From a plasmid: 64,000 bases of DNA. A program made the position numbers and the translations under genes. How positions within the stretch are numbered: position 1 is the stretch's first letter; every line of letters starts with the position of its first letter. Positions 3,259 to 54,908 of the stretch are shown in pieces. A model generated the notes under the pieces. It was not told the DNA's origin and ran no database searches. It saw nothing but the letters and a program-made list of their open reading frames with translations. Where the stretch lies: sequence record NZ_CP143948.1, one strand, 5' to 3'.

Positions 3259-4734
3259 TCAGCTCAGCTCTATCTCATATGCTCCGGCTTCAAAATCCAC
3301 CGTAAGAAGCGCATACGCTTCACCGTTATCATAGCGGATTGAGAGCTTTGGTCCTTCTCCTGCTACTGTGATGACAGCTCCCTTCTCAAACGCCTTATGG
3401 GTGTTTCTCATGCGAAGCAGCTCAAGCTGCTTTGCAACAACATCCTTTTTTAGCGCCTCCTCAATATCGGAAGCACTGAGGTTTGTCCTGTTGATTTCCT
3501 TATGTCCTGATTCTCCTGCTCGTCTTACTGCCTCATGGTCATTTTTGCCTGCAAAGAGATCCAGATACCATACCTGCGGCTTGCCCGGCATGAACATCTG
3601 AATAGCACGGGCCAGAAGCATTTTGCTGTCAGACTCACCAAGCGCACTGTAATATGTGGCATTGACCTGATAATATATATTCTTCTGTCCATGAAGATTT
3701 TTGACCATGCCGCCACGAGATACAATCAAATCTATAAGCGAGCGAATATCGTCCTCCGGAAGCAGACCCTTTAAATCCAGAAGAGGTATGCCGTCATGGC
3801 AGCCAAGCATATTGACAGTGGAGATTTTATCATCCACAACCTCACGCGCCCATTTTGCAAGGTAATCTGCTCTCCTGTTCTCAATCGCGTCAATTACCAG
3901 TCCCGGTAAAAAGAAATCATATGTGGCATAGCCCTTATCTGCAAGGGTTTTGTATATTTTCTCCTCATATGCCGCGTGTATTTCAGGCAGCAGAGTCAGC
4001 CCGAGCGGAGCTGCAAGCTCATGGATCTGCTGTAGAAATTCCCAGGTCTCAGGATCATTCAGGAAATTCTTTTTCCCCGGTGCCTTAGGCGCATAGGCAA
4101 ATGCATCGAGCCGCACAATAGCCGCACCGTAGGATGCTATTTTTTCAAGTGTTTCACGATAAAAATCCCATACCTTTTCGGACTTTATATTTAAATCCAT
4201 CTGCCCCAGATATTCTCTGCCATGCACCTCCTGGTAAAATGTGTTCCAGTATGGCACCCTTCGTCCATCCGGAAACTCAACCATGAGAATCGGAAGCCCC
4301 GGCTTTCTGAAAAACATCTGCTTTAAGCATGACTCATCAGGCTGTATGTAGCCCTCGTCCGTCATGACTCCATGACCTTCCCAGAATTTGTTCCAGTCTA
4401 TGAAAAAATCCCGGTACTCCGACTCATCGCCCTTTTCCACAAGATCCTTGAACTGTGGTGACTGTGCTGAAGCATGATTTAAAATAAAGTCAAGCTTTAA
4501 GTCAATCCCCAGCTCCTTCAATTGCGATAAATCCTCTATTGTCGCAAGCTCCTCATTCAGATTGTAGTCCACGACCGAAAATCCGCGATCCAAATCCGAA
4601 TGATACAGGCTTGGCAGAATATAAAATGATGAAAATGTGTCCTGCATTTCCTTCTTTTTGAGCAGCGCTGCGATATCGGAAAGCTTACCGCCCAGACTGT
4701 CAGGATATGCGTTAAGCATAGGTTTATTGTTCAT
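3259..4734 (-). CDS. gtfA: sucrose phosphorylase (GH13_18 family)
   Basis: Matches sucrose phosphorylase along its length (YPDSLGG, FYILP, ILNHASAQSPQFKDLVEKGDESEY, RLDAFAYAPK). The track ORF begins at a TTG (4755). An ATG at 4734 with an AAGGATGG RBS lies 5 nt after the alpha-galactosidase stop. Confidence 0.8.
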   Translation of the reverse strand: MNNKPMLNAYPDSLGGKLSDIAALLKKKEMQDTFSSFYILPSLYHSDLDRGFSVVDYNLNEELATIEDLSQLKELGIDLKLDFILNHASAQSPQFKDLVEKGDESEYRDFFIDWNKFWEGHGVMTDEGYIQPDESCLKQMFFRKPGLPILMVEFPDGRRVPYWNTFYQEVHGREYLGQMDLNIKSEKVWDFYRETLEKIASYGAAIVRLDAFAYAPKAPGKKNFLNDPETWEFLQQIHELAAPLGLTLLPEIHAAYEEKIYKTLADKGYATYDFFLPGLVIDAIENRRADYLAKWAREVVDDKISTVNMLGCHDGIPLLDLKGLLPEDDIRSLIDLIVSRGGMVKNLHGQKNIYYQVNATYYSALGESDSKMLLARAIQMFMPGKPQVWYLDLFAGKNDHEAVRRAGESGHKEINRTNLSASDIEEALKKDVVAKQLELLRMRNTHKAFEKGAVITVAGEGPKLSIRYDNGEAYALLTVDFEAGAYEIELS

Positions 4735-43005: not shown

Positions 43006-43050
43006 GTTTTACCTGCCACTCAAAATGTGTTCAAATATACTCAAACACAT

Positions 43051-43250
43051 CGAGAAATTAAAGTCCTTGCGGATACTTCTTACTGCTTCGATGTGTATGC
43101 TTTGGCGATTGTAAACAATACGCTACTCACAAGTTCGTGTACACTCCACAGTCGTAAATTCCTGCGATAGCCCGCAGTACATACTTACGTTTGCGTTTAT
43201 TATGCAACTTCGTAAGTTAAAGCATCTCTTAGATTAAGAGCAGCATTGAA
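43051..43250 (-). ncRNA. predicted omega-RNA (reRNA) scaffold of TnpB, by position only
   Basis: Region spanning the 3' end of tnpB and the right-end sequence, where IS200/605/607 omega-RNAs are encoded. Contains hairpin ATGTGTT-n13-AACACAT. Not confirmed by folding. Confidence 0.3.
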
Positions 43251-44360
43251 ATCCCTATCCTCAACATAACCACAATCACAACGATATATTCTATCTGAAA
43301 GCTTCAAATCTTTCTTGATAGCACCACAGCAATGACATATTTTGGATGATGGATACCATCTGTCTACGACTCTTAATTCAATACCATTTTCATCACATTT
43401 TGCTTTAAGCTTGGTTCTAAATTCATAGAACTTCTGTGACGCAACAGCTTTTGAAAGATGTCTGTTCTTCATCATTCCTGATACATTCAAATTTTCAATA
43501 GTTATATAAGATGGCTTGGTTTTCACTATCTCAGCTATTGATTTATTGATATAATCAGTACGGATATTATCTATTTTATGATGAAGTCTTTGTACTTTGA
43601 GCTTTTGCTTTTGTATATTCTTTTGAGTGGACTCTCCTTTCTTTAAGTTCTCATATTTTCGTGAGAGACATCTTTGTTCTCTACGCAGTTTCTTTTCCAA
43701 TTTTTTAATTCTTGTTGACTTATTGATATTTTTATAAGTTTTACCATTGGAAACAATCGCCAAGTCTTTTAAACCCAAGTCAATTCCTATACCACCATTG
43801 CTATTATTAGCAATCTTAACGTTGGGAATTTCTACAAGAACTGACACATAGTATCTGTCTGCTTTGACGGATACTGTACCGCTTTTGATTTTCCATCCGT
43901 CTTTAGTTGTTGGTATATAACCTTTTTCTTTAATGCGTACCCAACCTAAAGTGGGTATGTTCAGCCTATGTCTCTCACATCTACAGTCTTTAGTATTGTT
44001 CTTTACGAAATACATTTTTACATCAGATTTACCTTTCTTTTTGAAATTAGGAAAAGCGCTTTGATGTTTAAAAAATCTTGTAAATGCAGTACATCCATCT
44101 TCAATAGACTTTTTTACAGCTTTTGAATATGCTTCTTTAATCCATATTTTATCAGGATTATTAGGAATATACTCATTATTAAGCCATACGCTGAAACTCT
44201 TGCCAGTCATAAACTTTTCACCGTTATCATATAAAGTTTTGTTGTGACCGAGATAGAAGTTATAGACGTACCTACAAGTGCCAATAGTCTTGTTAATCTT
44301 GATTTTTTGCTCAATCGTCGGATTTATTTCCGTCTTGAAGCTCTTTAGCAATTTCCTCAT
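43200..44360 (-). CDS. tnpB: TnpB (OrfB_IS605 RuvC-like RNA-guided endonuclease family)
   Basis: 386 aa. Split RuvC motifs (GIDLGLKD, ITIENLNV) and a C-terminal zinc finger CHCCG...CDCG. Confidence 0.85.
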   Translation of the reverse strand: MRKLLKSFKTEINPTIEQKIKINKTIGTCRYVYNFYLGHNKTLYDNGEKFMTGKSFSVWLNNEYIPNNPDKIWIKEAYSKAVKKSIEDGCTAFTRFFKHQSAFPNFKKKGKSDVKMYFVKNNTKDCRCERHRLNIPTLGWVRIKEKGYIPTTKDGWKIKSGTVSVKADRYYVSVLVEIPNVKIANNSNGGIGIDLGLKDLAIVSNGKTYKNINKSTRIKKLEKKLRREQRCLSRKYENLKKGESTQKNIQKQKLKVQRLHHKIDNIRTDYINKSIAEIVKTKPSYITIENLNVSGMMKNRHLSKAVASQKFYEFRTKLKAKCDENGIELRVVDRWYPSSKICHCCGAIKKDLKLSDRIYRCDCGYVEDRDFNAALNLRDALTYEVA

Positions 44361-44961
44361 CCCTTTCTATTTGTTTTTCATACTTACGAAGTCCATACAA
44401 CCTGCAAGAGAATACATGAAGTATAGAAACAATATCCTGTACGAGTTCTTCCTGTGGTGATAGTTCTTCGTTGTTCACTACCACAATGCTTGTATTAAAC
44501 TTCATACAGAATTTTTCAAACCAATCGTAACCAAATCTGATAAATCTATCTTTATGAGTTACTATTATGGTTTTTATTTTCTGTTCCATTACTTCATTTA
44601 ATAATTCATTCCACTTTTTACGATTGTAATTAAGACCACTTCCATAATCCTCAATACACTGGTCTATAATAATACCTTTAGCATTACAAAACTGTCGCAA
44701 AAATGCAACTTGATTCTGTAAATCATCTTTTTGATTTCTTGTAGACACTCTGGCATAAATAACTACCTGACGTTTATCATTTTCAATATTTATGCCTTTG
44801 AATTGAAGGTACTGGTCATAGGTATAATAACGCCTATCAGTTGGAGTTCGATTTGCCTTTAAAGTTCCTTCTCTGTCCCAGCGTTGCAATGTCTTAACAG
44901 ACACACCTAACAGTTCAGCAAAATCTTTTGGCTTATAATTTGTGATATTTGATGTATTCAT
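44311..44961 (-). CDS. tnpA: IS607-family TnpA: MerR-like HTH plus serine recombinase
   Basis: N-terminal HTH (FAELLGVSVKTLQRWDREG), catalytic VVIYARVSTRNQKDDLQNQ. Overlaps tnpB by 50 nt. Confidence 0.85.
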   Translation of the reverse strand: MNTSNITNYKPKDFAELLGVSVKTLQRWDREGTLKANRTPTDRRYYTYDQYLQFKGINIENDKRQVVIYARVSTRNQKDDLQNQVAFLRQFCNAKGIIIDQCIEDYGSGLNYNRKKWNELLNEVMEQKIKTIIVTHKDRFIRFGYDWFEKFCMKFNTSIVVVNNEELSPQEELVQDIVSILHVFSCRLYGLRKYEKQIERDEEIAKELQDGNKSDD

Positions 44962-45084
44962 AATAATTTACTCCTTTGAGTATATTTAAACACATTTAAT
45001 CACATTTAACAATATATTCAATTACTTATTTTCTCCTCCTAGGTTGTTGCTACTACTTTTATTTTATGGTACGGAATTTTCGGC

Positions 45085-45215
45085 AACCCGCCAGCCGGGA
45101 CTTTTCAATGCTCAGGTTCTTCGGGCTAAGAGGCTGTATGAATTATGATTTTGGTTTTCTATGCTTGACGCGACCGGCTTTTACACACCTTCCGAAAATT
45201 CCTTACGCTGTGGTG
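45085..45215. repeat. partial, divergent copy of the repeat family seen at 50525-50820
   Basis: Shared core gctaagaGGCTGTATGAATTATGattttGGTTTTCTATGCTTGACGcgACCGGCTTTTAc and a CCTTACGyTGTGG end. Confidence 0.5.
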
Positions 45216-45283
45216 TTATTTAGAAAATCAGAATATGCAGGCACTTGGCCTGCACATTCTGGAATGTTGGATATTTTTTTATA

Positions 45284-47536
45284 TTACATTCTCTCGTGGC
45301 ATGTACGTGAGATTACATCGAGCTGCTGCTCTCTTGTGAGGTCGATGAACTTAACTGCGTATCCTGATACTCGGATTGTGAAGTTTGCGTACTCCTCCTT
45401 CTCAGGATGCTCCATTGCATCGATGAGCTTCTCTTTACCGAATACGTTTACATTGAGGTGATGTGCACCCTGATCGAAGTATCCGTCCATTACGTTTACA
45501 AGGTTGTCGATTCTCTCTCCCTCGTTGTTTCCGAGTGCTCCCGGATTGATGGTCTGTGTATTTGAGATTCCATCAAGCGCCCACTCATATGGAAGCTTTG
45601 TGAGTGAGTTTAAGGATGCGAGAAGTCCGTTCTGCTCTGCGCCGTATGATGGGTTTGCTCCCGGTGAGAGTGGCTCTCCGGCTTTACGTCCGTCAGGCAT
45701 TGCTCCTGTAGCTTTTCCGTATACTACGTTTGATGTAATTGTAAGGATTGATGTTGTAGGCTCTGAATCACGGTATGTGTGATGCTTCTTTAACTTGTCC
45801 ATGAATGTCTTAAGAAGCCATACACCGATTTCGTCCGCGCGGTCATCATCGTTTCCGTATTTAGGGAACTCTCCCTCGATTTCGAAATCCTTTGCCAGTC
45901 CGCTCTCGTCACGGACTACTTTAACCTTTGCATATTTGATTGCTGAAAGAGAATCGATTACGTGTGAGAATCCTGCGATTCCTGTTGCAAATGTTCTCTT
46001 TAAGTCTGTATCCATGAGTGCAAGCTCTGCTGCCTCATAGTAGTATTTGTCATGCATGTACTGGATAAGGTTTAATGTATTTACATAGATGTCTACTAAC
46101 CAGTCCATCATCTTGTCGTATTTCGCCATTACCTCGTCATAGTCAAGGTACTCTGCTGTGATAGGTGCGTAGTTTGGTCCTACCTGCTCACCTGATTTTT
46201 CATCAACACCACCGTTGATAGCGTAAAGGAGACATTTTGCAAGGTTTGCACGTGCTCCGAAGAACTGCATCTCTTTACCTGTCTGTGTTGCAGATACACA
46301 GCAGCAGATTGCATAATCATCGCCCCATACAGGCTTCATTGCGTCATCGTTCTCATACTGGATTGAGCTTGTCTCAATTGAGATGCGGGCTGCATAATCC
46401 TTGAAGGTCTGAGGAAGCTTTGATGAGTAGAATACTGTGAGGTTTGGCTCCGGTGCAGGTCCCATGTTCTCTAATGTATGGAGGAAACGGAAGTCTGTCT
46501 TTGTAACCATTGAACGTCCGTCCACACCTGTTCCTGCCACGTCAAGTGTTGCCCATACAGGATCACCTGAGAATAACTGGTTGTATGAAGGAATACGTGC
46601 AAATTTAACCATACGAAGCTTCATTGTAAAATGGTCGATGAGCTCCTGTGCTTCCTGCTCTGTGAGGATGCCCTTGTCCATATCTCTCTTGATGTAAATG
46701 TCAAGGAATGTAGATACACGTCCTACTGACATTGCTGCACCATTCTGTGTCTTGATTGCTGCAAGGTATCCGAAGTATAACCACTGAACTGCCTCTTTTG
46801 CGTTTGTTGCAGGTCTTGAGATATCATATCCGTAAATCTCTGCAAGCTTCTTCATATCCTCAAGACATTTAATCTGCTCTGCGATTTCCTCTCTTAAACG
46901 GATAACATCATCTGTCATCTGTCCACAGCCACAGTTTGCCTTATCCTTCTTTTTCTCTTCGATGAGATAATCAAGTCCGTATAATGCTACACGACGGTAA
47001 TCGCCTACGATACGTCCACGGCCGTATGTGTCAGGAAGACCTGTAAGGATCTTTGCATGACGAACCTTCATCATCTCAGGTGTGTATGCATCGAATACTG
47101 CTGTGTTGTGTGTCTTATGATATTTTGTGAAAATTTCCTTGAGCTTGTCGCTTACATTGTAACCATATGTCTCAGCAGCCTGTACTGCCATCTTGATTCC
47201 ACCGTAAGGCATGAATGCTCTCTTTAACGGCTTATCTGTCTGAAGACCTACAATCTGCTCGAGGTCCTTTAATGACTCATCTATATATCCAGGGCCGTAA
47301 GCTGTAATTCCTGTTACAACCTCTGTCTCCATGTCAAGAACTCCGCCCTTGGCACGCTCCTCTTTCTGTAATTTCTGAAGCGCATCCCACAGCTTGTTTG
47401 TAGCATCTGTCGGATCAGCTAAAAAGCTCTCATCTCCGTCGTATGGAGTGTAGTTGTCCTGAATAAACTGACGGACGTTGATTTCCTCTTTCCAAAGACG
47501 TCCTTCAAATCCATCCCACTCTTTCATCTCTATCAT
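45284..47536 (-). CDS. pflB: formate C-acetyltransferase (pyruvate formate-lyase, glycyl radical enzyme)
   Basis: 750 aa. C-terminal glycyl-radical motif RVSGYAVKF and catalytic CC pair (AICCCVSA). Confidence 0.9.
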
Positions 47537-47856
47537 TGTAATATCCTCCTTAAAATGTATGAATGTTACTTCGTTTGATTAGTTTTGTTTAACTGTGGTT
47601 AGTATATACTTACTACAGTATTTTTGTCAATATCCCTGTTGTTTCTTTTGAGATACATTCCCTGGTTATTTACACGACCATGGCTGATTTTATAATCAAA
47701 AAGAGCCAACTGTCCGGGTTTATCGCCCAGACGGTCGGCTCTTATTTGTTATATTTCATGTGGTTATTCCACTTATCCGTCAGTCATATAACACGTTCAT
47801 AGTAGACTATTTTTCTCAATAAAGCAATAGTGTTTTAGAACTATTTTTATTCTTTT

Positions 47857-49003: not shown

Positions 49004-50389
49004 CTATACCATCTGCACGAGCCACACGTCGCTTTTCACCATGAAGTATCCGATGACTACCTTTATCAGCTCTGTGGCCTGCACTAGGAAGTACACCGCT
49101 ACTATGCCAAGTGCTGTGTATTTGGCAAGCACAAATGCCACCGGCACCACTATCACCCACGTAAATACGGAGTCAAACAGAAATGTGACCAGTGTCTTGC
49201 CTCCTGAGCGGAGTGTGAAATACGACGAATGTGTAAATGCACAAAACGGCATAATTATCGCTGATACCGCTATGAAGCTTGTTGCGAGTGACTTGATTTC
49301 ATCTGTTGTGTTATATATCTGAGGGAAAAATCCGCCTACCAGAAGCATGACCGCCGCCATTACAGAACAGCAGAACACACTGAACACTATCATCTTGTTA
49401 TCCGCATCCTTTGCCTTTTCAAGCTCACCGGCTCCAAGATACTGCCCTACAACTATGCTGATGCATGCGCCAAGCTGTATAAACACGATATTGAAAAGGT
49501 TTGTTATCGTTGTCGCAATGTTTAAACCTGCGATTACCGAGAGTCCTCGTACTGAATAGCACTGTGTAACCGTTGTCATGCCTGCTGCCCATAAAAGCTC
49601 ATTGAGCATGAGTGGCAGTCCCTTGATGAATATAGTCTTAAACTCACCAAACGGCATTCCTATTCCTCTGTAAGCGCCCTCGAGATATCTGTTCTTATCC
49701 CTGTTTTTATGCGCCCACAGCACAACTATTATTGTCTCAATATATCGCGACATCACAGTGGCAATAGCGGCTCCCGCCACACCCAGCTTTGGTATCGGTC
49801 CTATTCCGAAGATGAGCAGAAAATCAAGCACCGCATTGCTTCCAACTGCTGCAAAGCTTGCAACCATCGGTACAAAAGTCTGTCCTGTTTCCTTTATGTT
49901 TGTCGCATAGGCCTGCGTCACCGCAAACGGTATGAGACCTATCATAACAATTTCCAGATATTCCTTTCCATATGCCAGTGCTACCTCCGTGGCACCGTTT
50001 CCTGCCGTATCTGTCAGATAAAGTGATATGAAACCTGTTCCGTTCGTGATAAACAGTGTCATCGCTATTGCTGTAACAAGCAGCGCTGCATACAGCTTGA
50101 ATCTGAAGGAATACATATGCCCTTTATGATTTCCCTTGCCAAAATACTGTGCTCCGAATATACTTGCCGCTGACACCGCCCCAAATACAGCCAGATTGTA
50201 CACAAATATGAGCTGGTTTACGATTGCTACTCCTGACATCTGCTCTGTACCAAGCTGTCCTACCATAATGTTGTCCAGAAAGCTTACCAGATTTGTGATT
50301 GCATTCTGGATTATCATTGGTATGGCCAGCATGAGATATCGCTTATAAAATGCTTTGTCTCCTATATATTTTTGTCTGAATTTATGCAT
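49004..50389 (-). CDS. MATE family efflux transporter
   Basis: 461 aa, 12 TM. N-terminal YKRYLMLAIPMIIQNAITNLVSFLDNIMVGQLG. Confidence 0.8.
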   Translation of the reverse strand: MHKFRQKYIGDKAFYKRYLMLAIPMIIQNAITNLVSFLDNIMVGQLGTEQMSGVAIVNQLIFVYNLAVFGAVSAASIFGAQYFGKGNHKGHMYSFRFKLYAALLVTAIAMTLFITNGTGFISLYLTDTAGNGATEVALAYGKEYLEIVMIGLIPFAVTQAYATNIKETGQTFVPMVASFAAVGSNAVLDFLLIFGIGPIPKLGVAGAAIATVMSRYIETIIVVLWAHKNRDKNRYLEGAYRGIGMPFGEFKTIFIKGLPLMLNELLWAAGMTTVTQCYSVRGLSVIAGLNIATTITNLFNIVFIQLGACISIVVGQYLGAGELEKAKDADNKMIVFSVFCCSVMAAVMLLVGGFFPQIYNTTDEIKSLATSFIAVSAIIMPFCAFTHSSYFTLRSGGKTLVTFLFDSVFTWVIVVPVAFVLAKYTALGIVAVYFLVQATELIKVVIGYFMVKSDVWLVQMV

Positions 50390-50524
50390 GTTTGTCCCCC
50401 TTTCGATTTCTCCATGGTTCTTTCGTGCAATGTTACTATTTTACTACGTCAGACTTTATTTTTCAAATATTTTATGTGTTTTCCTTAATTTATTTTAGGA
50501 TTCAGAATTTTGTATCATAATGGC

Positions 50525-50820
50525 CATGGGGCTGGGCGTAAGTCACAGAGTCCGGGCGGGCACGCCACACTCTCGCTTCCGCTACGCTTCGCAGCTAAGA
50601 TTCTGTACGAATTATGCCTTTGGGTTTTTCTATGCTTGACGAAACCGGCTTTTATGCGCCGTCCATGGCGCATAACGCCTTGCCCAGCCGTCCATGGCTG
50701 GGCATTTCTGGGTTTCATGGGCATAATTCTACAGCTTCTAAGCTGCTCCGCTATTCGCGTCCGCGAGGGTGCGACGTGCCCACCCGGACTCTGCGACTTA
50801 CGCCCCTTACGTTGTGGATG
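50525..50820. repeat. MITE-like intergenic repeat bounded by 31-bp imperfect terminal inverted repeats
   Basis: GGGCGTAAGTCACAGAGTCCGGGCGGGCACG at 50534-50564 versus CGTGCCCACCCGGACTCTGCGACTTACGCCC at 50775-50805 (29/31 complementary). Internal GTCCATGG-loop hairpins. Confidence 0.55.
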
Positions 50821-51019
50821 GGTTTAATTTTTATTGTATCTGCGTCCTATTATAAACGGCACCGGAAACTATTATATCGAAGCTATTGTATAATAACAGT
50901 ACTATTTTTCAATAATTAAAGCTCCCAACTGACAACACTATTTGTGCTGTCACTTGGGAGCTCTTAATTTAATTTTTTATTATAGTTTTACTTTTTATGT
51001 CAATATCCTGTTTATTTGT

Positions 51020-52531
51020 TTACTGCCGGTTCATATCCTGTGTTTCCTGATACTTTCTGATTACGAAAAACATGGTAGTTCCATCACCCTCTTTGCTGGT
51101 AGCCCATATCTTGCCGCCGTGATCCTCTATAATCTTCTTTACGATGGAAAGTCCTATGCCGCTGCCTCCGGTAGCCGAATTTCTCGACGCATCCGCTCTG
51201 TAAAATCTGTCAAAAATATATGGCATATCTCTCTGGTTGATTCCTCGTCCATTGTCCTCGATTTCAACCTGTATGAAGTCACCAACATCATTTATCCTGA
51301 TATCTATATAGCTTTGTGTCTTGTTCATATACTTCACCGAATTGCCGACTATATTATTAATCACACGGCGAATCTGCTCCGGATCAGCAATGATAAGCAC
51401 GTTGCTATCCACATGATTCTCATATGAAAGCCTGATATTTTTTGCCTCAAGATCGAGTCCTATTTCCTCAACACAGTCGTTAAAATAATCTGTGACATTT
51501 ATCTTCGCAAAATTATATGGAATCCTGTTCGTATCAATCTTCGAGTAAAGTGTCAGCTCATTAATGAGCTTATCCATATCGTTTGCCTTATTGTAAATGG
51601 TTCTGACGTATTTATCTACCTTTTCAGGGGTGTTTGCCACTCCGTCAAGTATGCCCTCGGCGTAGCCCTTTACCGCAGTAATAGGAGTCTTTAAATCATG
51701 CGCGATATTGCTGATTAACACTCTGTTTTCAGACTCATTCGTCACCTTTTCCTCGGCATTTTTCTTGAGGCGCGCACGCATCTGCTCAAACGCAGTACAC
51801 AGCTCGCCAATCTCTCCGTCGCTCGGGCTCGTCTCAAGCTCAAAATCCAGATTGCCATCCTTGATATTTTCAGCGGCAATACGCAGCCTCTCTATCGGTG
51901 TGATGATACTCCTGTATATCCACACTATAAGCATGGCAGCCGTAGTAAGAAGTATCAATACAAGCGCAAATGCTCCCTCTATCAAAACAGTCCTGACCTC
52001 AGGGATCACGCACGCGGTTGATGTCACTATGTAAAGACTCGCCTCGTCACCATCACTGTCACGAAAATTAAGCTGCTTTATGAGCACCTTGTCATCACTG
52101 TCCATATAGCTGCTCACATCAGAGCTGCTCTGCTTATTGGATATTCGCGGAAGCTTTCTCAAAATATCATCATTGTCAATTCCACCATTGAAAATGAGCT
52201 CTCCTTCACTTTTCACTATGAGATATGAATACTTCTTCTCCAGCTTCTTATTTATCTTAGTCAGATAATCACTATCAAGAAGCCTGGATGGTTCTATGAG
52301 CGATGTCTTCTCGAGCTCATCATATGTGCGCCCTGTCACCTTGTTCAGAAACTGTACTGTGTCAGTGAGCGCGAGCATGCCCGCATCCTCCATGCCATAT
52401 GTCTTGTTTATGGCCTTTAGCTGAATCTTATTGAAACCCACAAGCACTATACTGGTGAGCACAACAGGCACAAAAATAATTATGCAGAATGATATAGCAA
52501 GTTTTGTTTTTATCTTCATAGTATTCTCCAT
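51020..52531 (-). CDS. sensor histidine kinase (two TM, extracellular sensor domain, HAMP, HisKA, HATPase)
   Basis: 503 aa. H-box LISNIAHDLKTP. ATP-binding GGSGIGLSIVKKI. Confidence 0.8.
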   Translation of the reverse strand: MENTMKIKTKLAISFCIIIFVPVVLTSIVLVGFNKIQLKAINKTYGMEDAGMLALTDTVQFLNKVTGRTYDELEKTSLIEPSRLLDSDYLTKINKKLEKKYSYLIVKSEGELIFNGGIDNDDILRKLPRISNKQSSSDVSSYMDSDDKVLIKQLNFRDSDGDEASLYIVTSTACVIPEVRTVLIEGAFALVLILLTTAAMLIVWIYRSIITPIERLRIAAENIKDGNLDFELETSPSDGEIGELCTAFEQMRARLKKNAEEKVTNESENRVLISNIAHDLKTPITAVKGYAEGILDGVANTPEKVDKYVRTIYNKANDMDKLINELTLYSKIDTNRIPYNFAKINVTDYFNDCVEEIGLDLEAKNIRLSYENHVDSNVLIIADPEQIRRVINNIVGNSVKYMNKTQSYIDIRINDVGDFIQVEIEDNGRGINQRDMPYIFDRFYRADASRNSATGGSGIGLSIVKKIIEDHGGKIWATSKEGDGTTMFFVIRKYQETQDMNRQ

Positions 52532-53332: not shown

Positions 53333-53420
53333 ATCCGTTCCTCCTGAAAATAAAAAGCCATGGAAACCGACTCAATGTCAGCCCCATGACTTAATTATAT
53401 CATATATCCGATAACTTCTG

Positions 53421-53460
53421 TCTAAATTTTCTCTAAATTCTTTCTAACTTTTTCTAAGAA
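53421..53460 (-). promoter_or_regulatory. four tandem ~10-bp direct repeats (TTAGAAARAR on the minus strand) upstream of the RR/HK operon
   Basis: tctaaattttctctaaattctttctaactttttctaagaa. The ~10-bp periodicity is typical of OmpR/PhoB-type boxes. Confidence 0.4.
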
Positions 53461-53518
53461 ATATAATGTATACTATCCGGCGCTCACAACCTAAAAAGCG
53501 CGAAGCCCCACATATTGT

Positions 53519-54796: not shown

Positions 54797-54908
54797 ATCC
54801 TCTTATTGTTCGATTACTCGCTCAGGTTGGCACCTTCCTGTTTTCTAACGGGGTTGCCGTGACTTCATAGATCCTTTGTATCTCCATCACTCTGAATAAG
54901 AGAAGTTA
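54797..54908 (-). ncRNA. SAM-I (S-box) riboswitch
   Basis: Minus-strand sequence CTCTTATTCAGAGTGATGGAGATAC...GGATCTATGAAGTCACGGCAACC...GGTGCCAACCTGAGC...CAATAAGAG matches the S-box consensus (CTCTTATCAAGAG...GGCAACC...GTGCCAA...AGAG) directly upstream of metK. Confidence 0.7.

Follow-up and report, generated by a model that had tools for sequence, protein, structure and literature searches.

A TwoAYGGAY RNA with a long closing helix between a histidine-kinase and a MATE gene of Agathobacter rectalis, and its dispersed relatives in Lachnospiraceae

The TwoAYGGAY motif (Rfam RF01731) was described by Weinberg et al. 2010 (Genome Biol 11:R31), who found it in the human gut, gamma-proteobacteria and Clostridiales and scored it as probably an RNA and as not cis-regulatory; a passage in the supplement of that paper remarks that the closing helix, P1, "is often very large". 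Binding of the regulator CsrA by TwoAYGGAY has been proposed from motif scans (Gardner & Eldai 2015, PMC4333381), and the Rfam clan of the family, CL00106, is also that of CsrB, as scanning of E. coli csrB confirmed. Here we describe a complete copy of this RNA on the minus strand at 50534-50805 of a stretch of 64,000 nucleotides (nt) from sequence record NZ_CP143948.1, hereafter the window. The host is Agathobacter rectalis (Eubacterium rectale), the species under which NCBI and UniRef list the neighbouring MATE protein, a protein encoded in 13,806 blocks of the assembly collection, and we regard the copy as chromosomal. The family is already catalogued and its function is unproven; TwoAYGGAY is still an orphan RNA, and the segment needs no new name. 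What is added here, and is modestly interesting, is the rod-shaped extension of the RNA across Lachnospiraceae, its inversion, its copy bursts and a range of natural deletion alleles, and these do not make it a new kind of system.

The full window was scanned with Rfam 15. All 168 positions of the RF01731 model (1-168) matched the minus strand at 50584-50753 with 152.8 bits (E = 1.6e-28; gathering score 43), and the plus strand gave no TwoAYGGAY match. A profile of Agathobacter-type copies matched nearly the whole segment (nhmmer, 50535-50804, E = 1.2e-81). The segment thus combines a full-model score with two AYGGAY loops, a large P1 and covarying pairs. An initial annotation, made from the letters of the DNA, had suggested either a structured small RNA (sRNA) family or a small non-autonomous repeat family, and the first suggestion is confirmed by this match. 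The module is a single hairpin-shaped RNA of 272 nt, with these parts and upstream features:

50534-50805, minus strand: complete module, the TwoAYGGAY core with its extended closing helix P1 (arms, fold, profile match)
50584-50753, minus strand: match to Rfam RF01731 TwoAYGGAY, model positions 1-168 of 168
50763-50805, minus strand: 5' strand of P1 (arms, fold, covariation in 15 copies)
50534-50576, minus strand: 3' strand of P1 (arms, fold, covariation in 15 copies)
50681-50704, minus strand: hairpin 1, UGCCCAGCC-AUGGAC-GGCUGGGCA, with the first AYGGAY loop (stem covaries, columns 111-134)
50652-50675, minus strand: hairpin 2, UUAUGCGCC-AUGGAC-GGCGCAUAA, with the second AYGGAY loop (stem covaries, columns 141-164)
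50806-50817, minus strand: leader motif CCACAACGUAAGG, directly 5' of the hairpin, common to several Agathobacter paralogues and to a degenerate second copy in the window (see below)
50885-50912, minus strand: promoter-like site TTGAAA-16-TACAAT (10/12 matches; allele comparison)

The initial annotation had taken the segment for a miniature inverted-repeat transposable element (MITE) with 31-bp terminal inverted repeats (TIRs). The repeats themselves are as it described: GGGCGTAAGTCACAGAGTCCGGGCGGGCACG at 50534-50564 on the plus strand is met by its reverse complement at 50775-50805 with 29 of 31 positions matching. A repeat finder extended the arms to 43 nt (50534-50576 and 50763-50805, 88% complementary at the DNA level, with 186 nt between them) and found further complementary segments inward of these. 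The supposed TIRs are the two strands of the closing helix P1, the right-hand one its 5' strand and the left-hand one its 3' strand, and they lie just outside the Rfam model and continue its P1. The two short hairpins with GTCCATGG loops, also pointed out by the initial annotation, carry the defining AYGGAY loops of TwoAYGGAY; both have 9-bp stems and 6-nt loops, a 12-nt GCCGTCCATGGC is common to the two, and together with its closing pair each loop reads CAUGGACG. When the 306-nt region was folded, the minus strand formed a single rod in which 37 outer pairs follow one another without a break (-185.1 kcal/mol; relative to dinucleotide shuffles, z = -17.4), and the plus strand reached -172.7 kcal/mol (z = -12.5). 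A protein-coding reading was rejected, and the segment stands as non-coding, as first annotated: the open reading frames (ORFs) over the element at 50510-50827 (+), 50515-50724 (-) and 50614-50919 (+), and the ORF over the second copy at 45066-45461 (+), had no Pfam match at E <= 0.1.

Relatives were sought on contigs representing one genome per species, using a pattern made of the two loops and the conserved CGUCA, which is therefore fixed in all copies so recovered; shuffling the window gave an expected count of 0.00 for this pattern. At least 120 stretches matched. Among the matches listed, there were at least 8 copies in the genome of Agathobacter sp. LCP21S3_B2 and at least 11 in Lachnospiraceae RGIG4909, with 5-6 copies in Roseburia and in Lachnospiraceae MGB1 and others in Lachnospira and Lachnobacterium. 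The possibility, allowed for in the initial annotation, that relatives hold no copies at all is thereby set aside. The Rfam threshold was reached by examples from Lachnospiraceae, Paraferrimonas, Shewanella and Stutzerimonas, those of Stutzerimonas matching over the two hairpins only (45 bits), without long arms and with a sense-strand terminator. Pattern matches in Selenomonadaceae and Dehalobacter were not counted, since all those rescanned (L022, L036, L085, L087, L049 and L069) fell below the threshold.

Inverted arms of 85-190 nt lie on each side of the core in ∼47 Lachnospiraceae copies, and the long rod is thus a trait of this lineage. Its pairing is maintained: in an RNAalifold analysis of 15 copies, 45 of the 76 pairs predicted showed double compensatory changes, among them pairs of the outer P1 and of both hairpins, and the differences between two orthologues (L038 and L086) are compensated changes. 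Paralogues within one Agathobacter genome conserve the core and differ in their arm sequences, yet the arms pair within each copy; over the whole element, paralogues in Agathobacter genomes are 70-91% identical. The conserved part is an asymmetric core sequence, including the 3x3 internal loops (GGA/GAA), and the sense strand gave the more stable fold of the whole element for 27 of 39 copies (p = 0.02). Core conservation while the arms drift, together with this bias in stability, argues for selection at the RNA level.

In Lachnospiraceae, TwoAYGGAY is a dispersed, multi-copy, near-palindromic cassette located just downstream of genes, in either orientation. Many copies begin 6-46 nt from a stop codon, and the 27 copies for which both neighbouring genes were called comprised 8 in the ++ arrangement, 11 in the -- arrangement, 7 between convergent genes and 1 between divergent genes. 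The ORFs within 2.5 kb of 120 matches clustered only into spurious ORFs over the RNA and unrelated families, and no conserved protein gene was found beside the copies. Carriage by phages or plasmids was not seen: PLSDB gave no match, the phages one irrelevant match of 59 nt, and 2.9 million viral contigs 0 matches to the pattern.

Some genomes contain copies that are 96-99% identical and have unrelated flanks. In RGIG4909, such copies are placed at contig ends, which is indicative of a recent burst. The metagenome-assembled genome (MAG) in question has its at least 11 copies (on L024, L037, L051, L067, L093, L114, L133 and L138) at 92-99% identity, mostly ∼100 nt or less from a contig end, and the repeat evidently breaks short-read assemblies there. 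A different arrangement was observed on L066, in which a tandem array of two truncated units (CACARCG..AA, then GACGTAAGCACCGG-YCAY-CGGTGCGCACACGT...) stands ∼130 nt upstream of the element at 4246-4502; the units resemble the leader and outer 5' arm and precede the full copy.

The orientation of the cassette itself can change. At an orthologous locus in two Agathobacter genomes, the elements align plus/plus with 94% identity and the flank aligns reversed with 89% identity:

L042 7500-8000 and L113 7400-8000: inverted module, in opposite orientations between the same flanks

This mismatch between element and flank means that the module was inverted, as expected from arm-arm recombination, and we conclude that the cassette can flip by recombination between its own arms.

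The best explanation for the segment overall, and one we consider probable without being sure of it, is a TwoAYGGAY RNA that has P1 for its arms, is carried as a repeat-like cassette and is inferred to be a CsrA decoy. The decoy function, taken by itself, is the best mechanism we can offer, and as a motif-based hypothesis it is advanced tentatively. Transcription of the RNA would start at the promoter-like site (50912-50885) or reach it by read-through, and its two loops would bind the two faces of one CsrA dimer. As a decoy, the RNA would lift repression by CsrA, of flagellin for instance. P1, being long and perfect, may insulate the fold from flanking transcript, and RNase III could plausibly process the RNA there; speculatively, such insulation or processing would let a promoter-less cassette work from read-through transcripts wherever it had landed.

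The loop with its closing pair, CAUGGACG, fits the CsrA/RsmE site CANGGANG, which is reportedly the binding consensus of these proteins. The two loops are 23 nt apart, and work on dual-site binding by CsrA is said to place this spacing within reach of one dimer. The host also has the protein: in E. rectale, csrA is found in an flgM-csrA cluster (PMC3720852), and the CsrA of A. rectalis, placed in a B. subtilis chassis, represses motility (PMC13443453). If a multi-copy, strain-variable RNA were shown to titrate CsrA, strain-level intergenic variation would be linked to motility and flagellin output in A. rectalis and Roseburia, which rank with the most abundant flagellated commensals of the gut and have immunologically relevant flagellins.

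A number of observations weigh against this explanation, or against parts of it. The GGA motifs are far fewer than in CsrB: hairpin loops hold only two, where CsrB and RsmZ have many, and the others lie in stems or in the 3x3 internal loops (GGA/GAA). The CsrA role is a proposal from motifs. No intrinsic terminator or T-run follows the hairpin on the minus strand (3' of 50534). The orientation of copies relative to their neighbouring genes looks random, and among 34 Lachnospiraceae copies promoter-like sites were found on the sense side in 6 and on the antisense side in 5, and T-run signals were not commoner on the sense side. The HK-MATE copy (between the histidine-kinase, HK, and MATE genes) has been lost or broken in many natural strains and is thus dispensable. 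Finally, the outer arms carry no strand signal of their own. Their stability favoured the two strands in 21 and 19 copies, their G-U pairs numbered 110 and 112 with no strand-specific excess, and a strand test of G-U against A-C, made on the arms without restriction to their outer part, gave 184 against 164. Gene conversion between the arms at the DNA level, instead of selection on the RNA, could therefore be what preserves their complementarity; alternatively, flipping could have scrambled the strand signal.

The alternative that fares best keeps the TwoAYGGAY RNA and replaces CsrA by another protein or RNA partner, or by some other role, for a pseudoknotted structure. The loop sequence GACG is the complement of the invariant CGUC in the conserved segment CGUCAAG, so that the loops could engage in tertiary pairing, and GGA loops number only two. 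Word counts for a bioRxiv preprint, Minerva (10.64898/2026.09.22.753630, September 2026), point the same way, and thus against the decoy: TwoAYGGAY is counted 52 times, including in the abstract, "pseudoknot" 12 times and "cryo-EM" 4 times, and CsrA 0 times. By the same counts, flagell-, transposon, nuclease, integrase, ribozyme and recombinase are also at 0, and the preprint appears to be without "inverted repeat", "mobile genetic", "RNA-binding protein" and "Lachnospiraceae". To judge from these counts, it may propose a different structure or role for TwoAYGGAY. Against another partner stand the exact fit of the loops to the CsrA site, a spacing that suits the dimer, the placement of the family in the Csr/Rsm clan by the Rfam curators and the active CsrA of A. 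rectalis (PMC3720852, PMC13443453). We regard a partner other than CsrA as unlikely, although worth keeping in mind.

A further alternative discards the RNA function in Lachnospiraceae. The element would be a non-autonomous DNA transposon, like a MITE or a REPIN (a hairpin of paired repetitive extragenic palindromic, REP, sequences), with arms recognised by a transposase in trans and a core that binds protein or hitch-hikes. Many copies per genome, unrelated flanks and near-identical copies (96-99%) at contig ends agree with this, as do the placement of the copies, which resembles that of REP elements and MITEs (at the 3' ends of genes, in either orientation, and just once among 27 copies in a divergent promoter region), and the lack of G-U strand bias in the outer arms. 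Most copies are without a dedicated promoter or terminator, and two (L112 and L094) are flanked by direct repeats of 7-10 bp (GCCACARC). Presence or absence between strains also agrees with it, and was checked at the HK-MATE locus. Ten A. rectalis contigs encoding an identical MATE protein gave four alleles of the spacer (the first four below), and a metagenome scan for window-type arms, which yielded 23 stretches, was also used:

Full allele (the window, L003 and L004): spacer of 630-648 nt
Empty allele (five contigs): spacer of 243-255 nt, with 12 unrelated nt replacing ∼397 nt
Core-deleted allele (L007): outer stem kept, Rfam core lost between two GCGAA microhomologies
285-nt allele (L006 and L008): 3' flank only, with a possible scrap of leader and arm
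Hairpin-fused allele (L153, metagenome scan): 29-nt deletion between two identical loop segments
Truncated allele (L156, metagenome scan): rearrangement inside the core
Hybrid element (L155:6535-6950, metagenome scan): 5' half and flank identical to the window's HK-side copy, 3' half and flank of an L066-type paralogue

The copy is thus present, absent or deleted among A. rectalis strains. The alleles of L007, L153 and L156 have plainly arisen from a full copy by deletion or rearrangement, and the empty allele may be ancestral or a further deletion. The crossover of the hybrid lies inside hairpin 2, and L155 is either a recombinant between paralogous copies, and so a chromosomal rearrangement, or a chimera of metagenome assembly. 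The metK-response regulator spacer (53333-53518) is polymorphic as well, with a ∼161-nt AT-rich insertion upstream of the ribosome-binding site of the regulator in L003, L005 and L008, and a ∼54-nt difference at its metK end in L005 and L009, both unrelated to TwoAYGGAY. Intergenic mosaicism is therefore general in A. rectalis and, with such indels nearby, polymorphism alone is weak evidence of transposition.

Other features speak against a transposon more directly. No target-site duplication was found in either comparison of filled and empty alleles (the HK-MATE site and the site of the second copy), the empty alleles carrying unrelated filler, and direct repeats in the flanks had a mean of 5.25 nt within the same copy against 5.10 nt across copies. 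Because the arms of Agathobacter paralogues differ, there is no common TIR, and no transposase was found beside any copy, a parent insertion sequence (IS) elsewhere in the genomes not having been searched for. The window-type arms are confined to the HK-MATE locus: every placeable match with an intact core among the 23 metagenome stretches was this locus, in the window's orientation, and a flipped allele there had 0 matches in the metagenome contigs. Viral contigs, phages and plasmids held no copies, the broken alleles derive from a full copy, and the core is an RNA motif found across phyla, which in Stutzerimonas occurs without the long arms and with its own terminator on the sense strand. 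The repeat family of the initial annotation thus stands as far as it is multi-copy (at least 5-11 in Lachnospiraceae genomes) and polymorphic, and is not supported as a MITE with TIRs, the arms being P1 and target-site duplications being absent. On this evidence, we consider a transposon without RNA function improbable.

A third alternative, a cis-acting element of a neighbouring gene, depends on the setting of the copy, which domain matches confirmed to be the one first annotated:

49004-50389, minus strand: MatE transporter gene
51020-52531, minus strand: HAMP/HisKA/HATPase kinase gene

The element shares its strand with both genes and lies 214 nt past the HK stop codon and 144 nt ahead of the MATE start codon. 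With no terminator between it and MATE, and with "Cis-reg" as the type label of the family in Rfam, it could be the terminator or 3' untranslated region of the kinase gene or a regulatory 5' leader of MATE. The kinase, however, has its own terminator, a hairpin with a U-rich tail at 50920-50962 that is kept in strains without the element, and MATE has its own promoter-like site at 50466-50438, kept in the empty alleles. The segment itself is not a G+C-rich hairpin followed by a U-tract; with no T-run after 50534, it is not the ordinary terminator of a neighbour that the initial annotation had considered as another way to explain the inverted repeats. Other copies have unrelated neighbours in all orientations, and the 2010 scoring of the motif was not cis-regulatory. 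A cis-acting role is thus highly improbable. Only strains with the element (full alleles) have the promoter-like site at 50912-50885, which precedes the hairpin by ∼73 nt. Elsewhere in the window, two riboswitches exceeded the Rfam threshold and are ordinary, namely a ZMP/ZTP riboswitch upstream of pflB (47718-47797, minus strand) and a SAM-I riboswitch upstream of metK (54800-54902, minus strand).

The initial annotation had also reported a divergent second copy exactly at the left end of an IS607 element, and had taken this as a hint that IS607 had targeted or co-mobilised the repeat. The features concerned are:

45080-45224, minus strand: TwoAYGGAY remnant (nhmmer homology; below the Rfam threshold)
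44311-44961: tnpA of IS607 (serine recombinase)
43200-44360: tnpB of IS607

The second copy itself is genuine. It matched positions 141-213 of the Agathobacter-type profile at 45124-45194 (nhmmer, E = 1.8e-12) and has the core's 3' half and the CCACARCGTAAGG motif in common with the copy at 50534-50805. On the RF01731 model it scored 22.7 bits (E = 2.2), below threshold. Still recognisable in it are a leader (CCACAGCGUAAGG), the 3' half of hairpin 2, CGUCAAGCAUAGAAAA..., the 3' strand of P2 and, in decayed form, the 3' arm; the 5' arm and both AYGGAY hairpins are gone. From its sequence, we judge it to be a true homologue but a dead relic.

Its position relative to IS607 differs from that first given. 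Comparison with IS-free strains placed the IS, which lies between pflB and pflA, at 43012-45034 (+/- 2 nt). Its junctions read ...CCTAGGAGG|AGAAAA... and ...GGCAGG|TAAAAC-ATG, and it inserted at GG in the ribosome-binding site of pflA, so that ∼46 nt of native pflA leader separate the end of the IS (45034) from the remnant (from 45080). The remnant lies outside the IS and is carried unchanged by the IS607-free L019, L005 and L007; L008 has no remnant and 22 unrelated nt at the site. Given the unchanged remnant in these strains and the IS ending 46 nt away, IS607 neither targeted nor carried it, and the idea of a repeat tied to IS607 as target site or passenger, prompted by a distance of ∼50 nt, deserves virtually no credence, all the more as no IS is near the intact copy.

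The IS itself was characterised further. It separates the Shine-Dalgarno sequence of pflA (AGGAGG) from the spacer and ATG, and the IS end ...GGCAGG replaces the Shine-Dalgarno context. The insertion is polymorphic, nine of ten contigs found via the pflA protein carrying it and L019, L005, L007 and L008 not, and it is decaying, with tnpB split into two ORFs (L012, L018) or shortened at its N-terminus (L013). A RAGATH-18 RNA (RF03064, 68.8 bits) was found at 43080-43152 on the minus strand, between the tnpB stop codon (43200) and the right end of IS607 (43012). As this is where the scaffold of a TnpB guide is expected, the match is probably part of the IS607 TnpB guide RNA (omega/reRNA).

Extending the decoy explanation to Lachnospiraceae gives a picture that we hold to be doubtful. 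Here, TwoAYGGAY would be a mobile, invertible, palindromic cassette that presents a putative CsrA-decoy core at the tip of a perfect hairpin of 240-450 nt, is self-contained and promoter-less, spreads to gene 3' ends and is released from any read-through transcript by RNase III, while recombination between its arms flips it between a sense (active) and an antisense (silent) state. If true, abundant gut bacteria would tune CsrA activity and motility by copy number and at the level of the population, and the cassette would be a new kind of selfish RNA-gene repeat. In Lachnospiraceae MAGs, breaks in the assembly and junctions of rearrangements are explained by the bursts of near-identical copies, the inversion and the frequent deletion described above.

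Among known mobile repeats, the Correia elements of Neisseria, which are MITEs, are also non-coding, multi-copy and strain-polymorphic, and have inverted-repeat ends giving a long RNA hairpin that RNase III could cut. TwoAYGGAY differs in having no target-site duplication, no arm sequence common to the Agathobacter copies and no parent IS that was seen, and its inverted repeat is a continuous helix up to the RNA core rather than two short terminal sites. The REP, bacterial interspersed mosaic element (BIME) and REPIN sequences of proteobacteria are similar as dispersed intergenic palindromes that sit at gene 3' ends in either orientation, are rare in divergent promoter regions and vary between strains. 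TwoAYGGAY is much longer (240-450 nt) and has a conserved, asymmetric, structured core, and neither a REP-associated tyrosine transposase (RAYT-type) nor a GTAG-type signature was identified for it.

The sponge sRNAs of the Csr/Rsm systems (CsrB, CsrC and RsmX/Y/Z) resemble TwoAYGGAY in presenting GGA in loops in the context of CANGGANG, in having multiple gene copies (compare rsmX), in a host with CsrA and in clan CL00106. They have ∼5-22 GGA loops against two in TwoAYGGAY, which has no recognisable terminator, is embedded in a long perfect helix and occurs in a Firmicute host, and whose CsrA binding is only proposed. In Firmicutes, the known antagonist of CsrA is a protein, FliW, and we know of no CsrA-antagonist sRNA demonstrated in this phylum.

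The closest relative remains the TwoAYGGAY motif itself. In its 2010 description, P1 has 24 bp, compared with 43 nt per arm here and up to ∼190 nt in relatives, beyond the Rfam model. The segment agrees with the motif in its full-length covariance-model match, its two AYGGAY terminal loops, its tandem G-A internal loops and its very long P1, and in coming from a human-gut Clostridiales host with several copies per genome. Thus, 50534-50805 is a member of the TwoAYGGAY family, with no essential difference from it.

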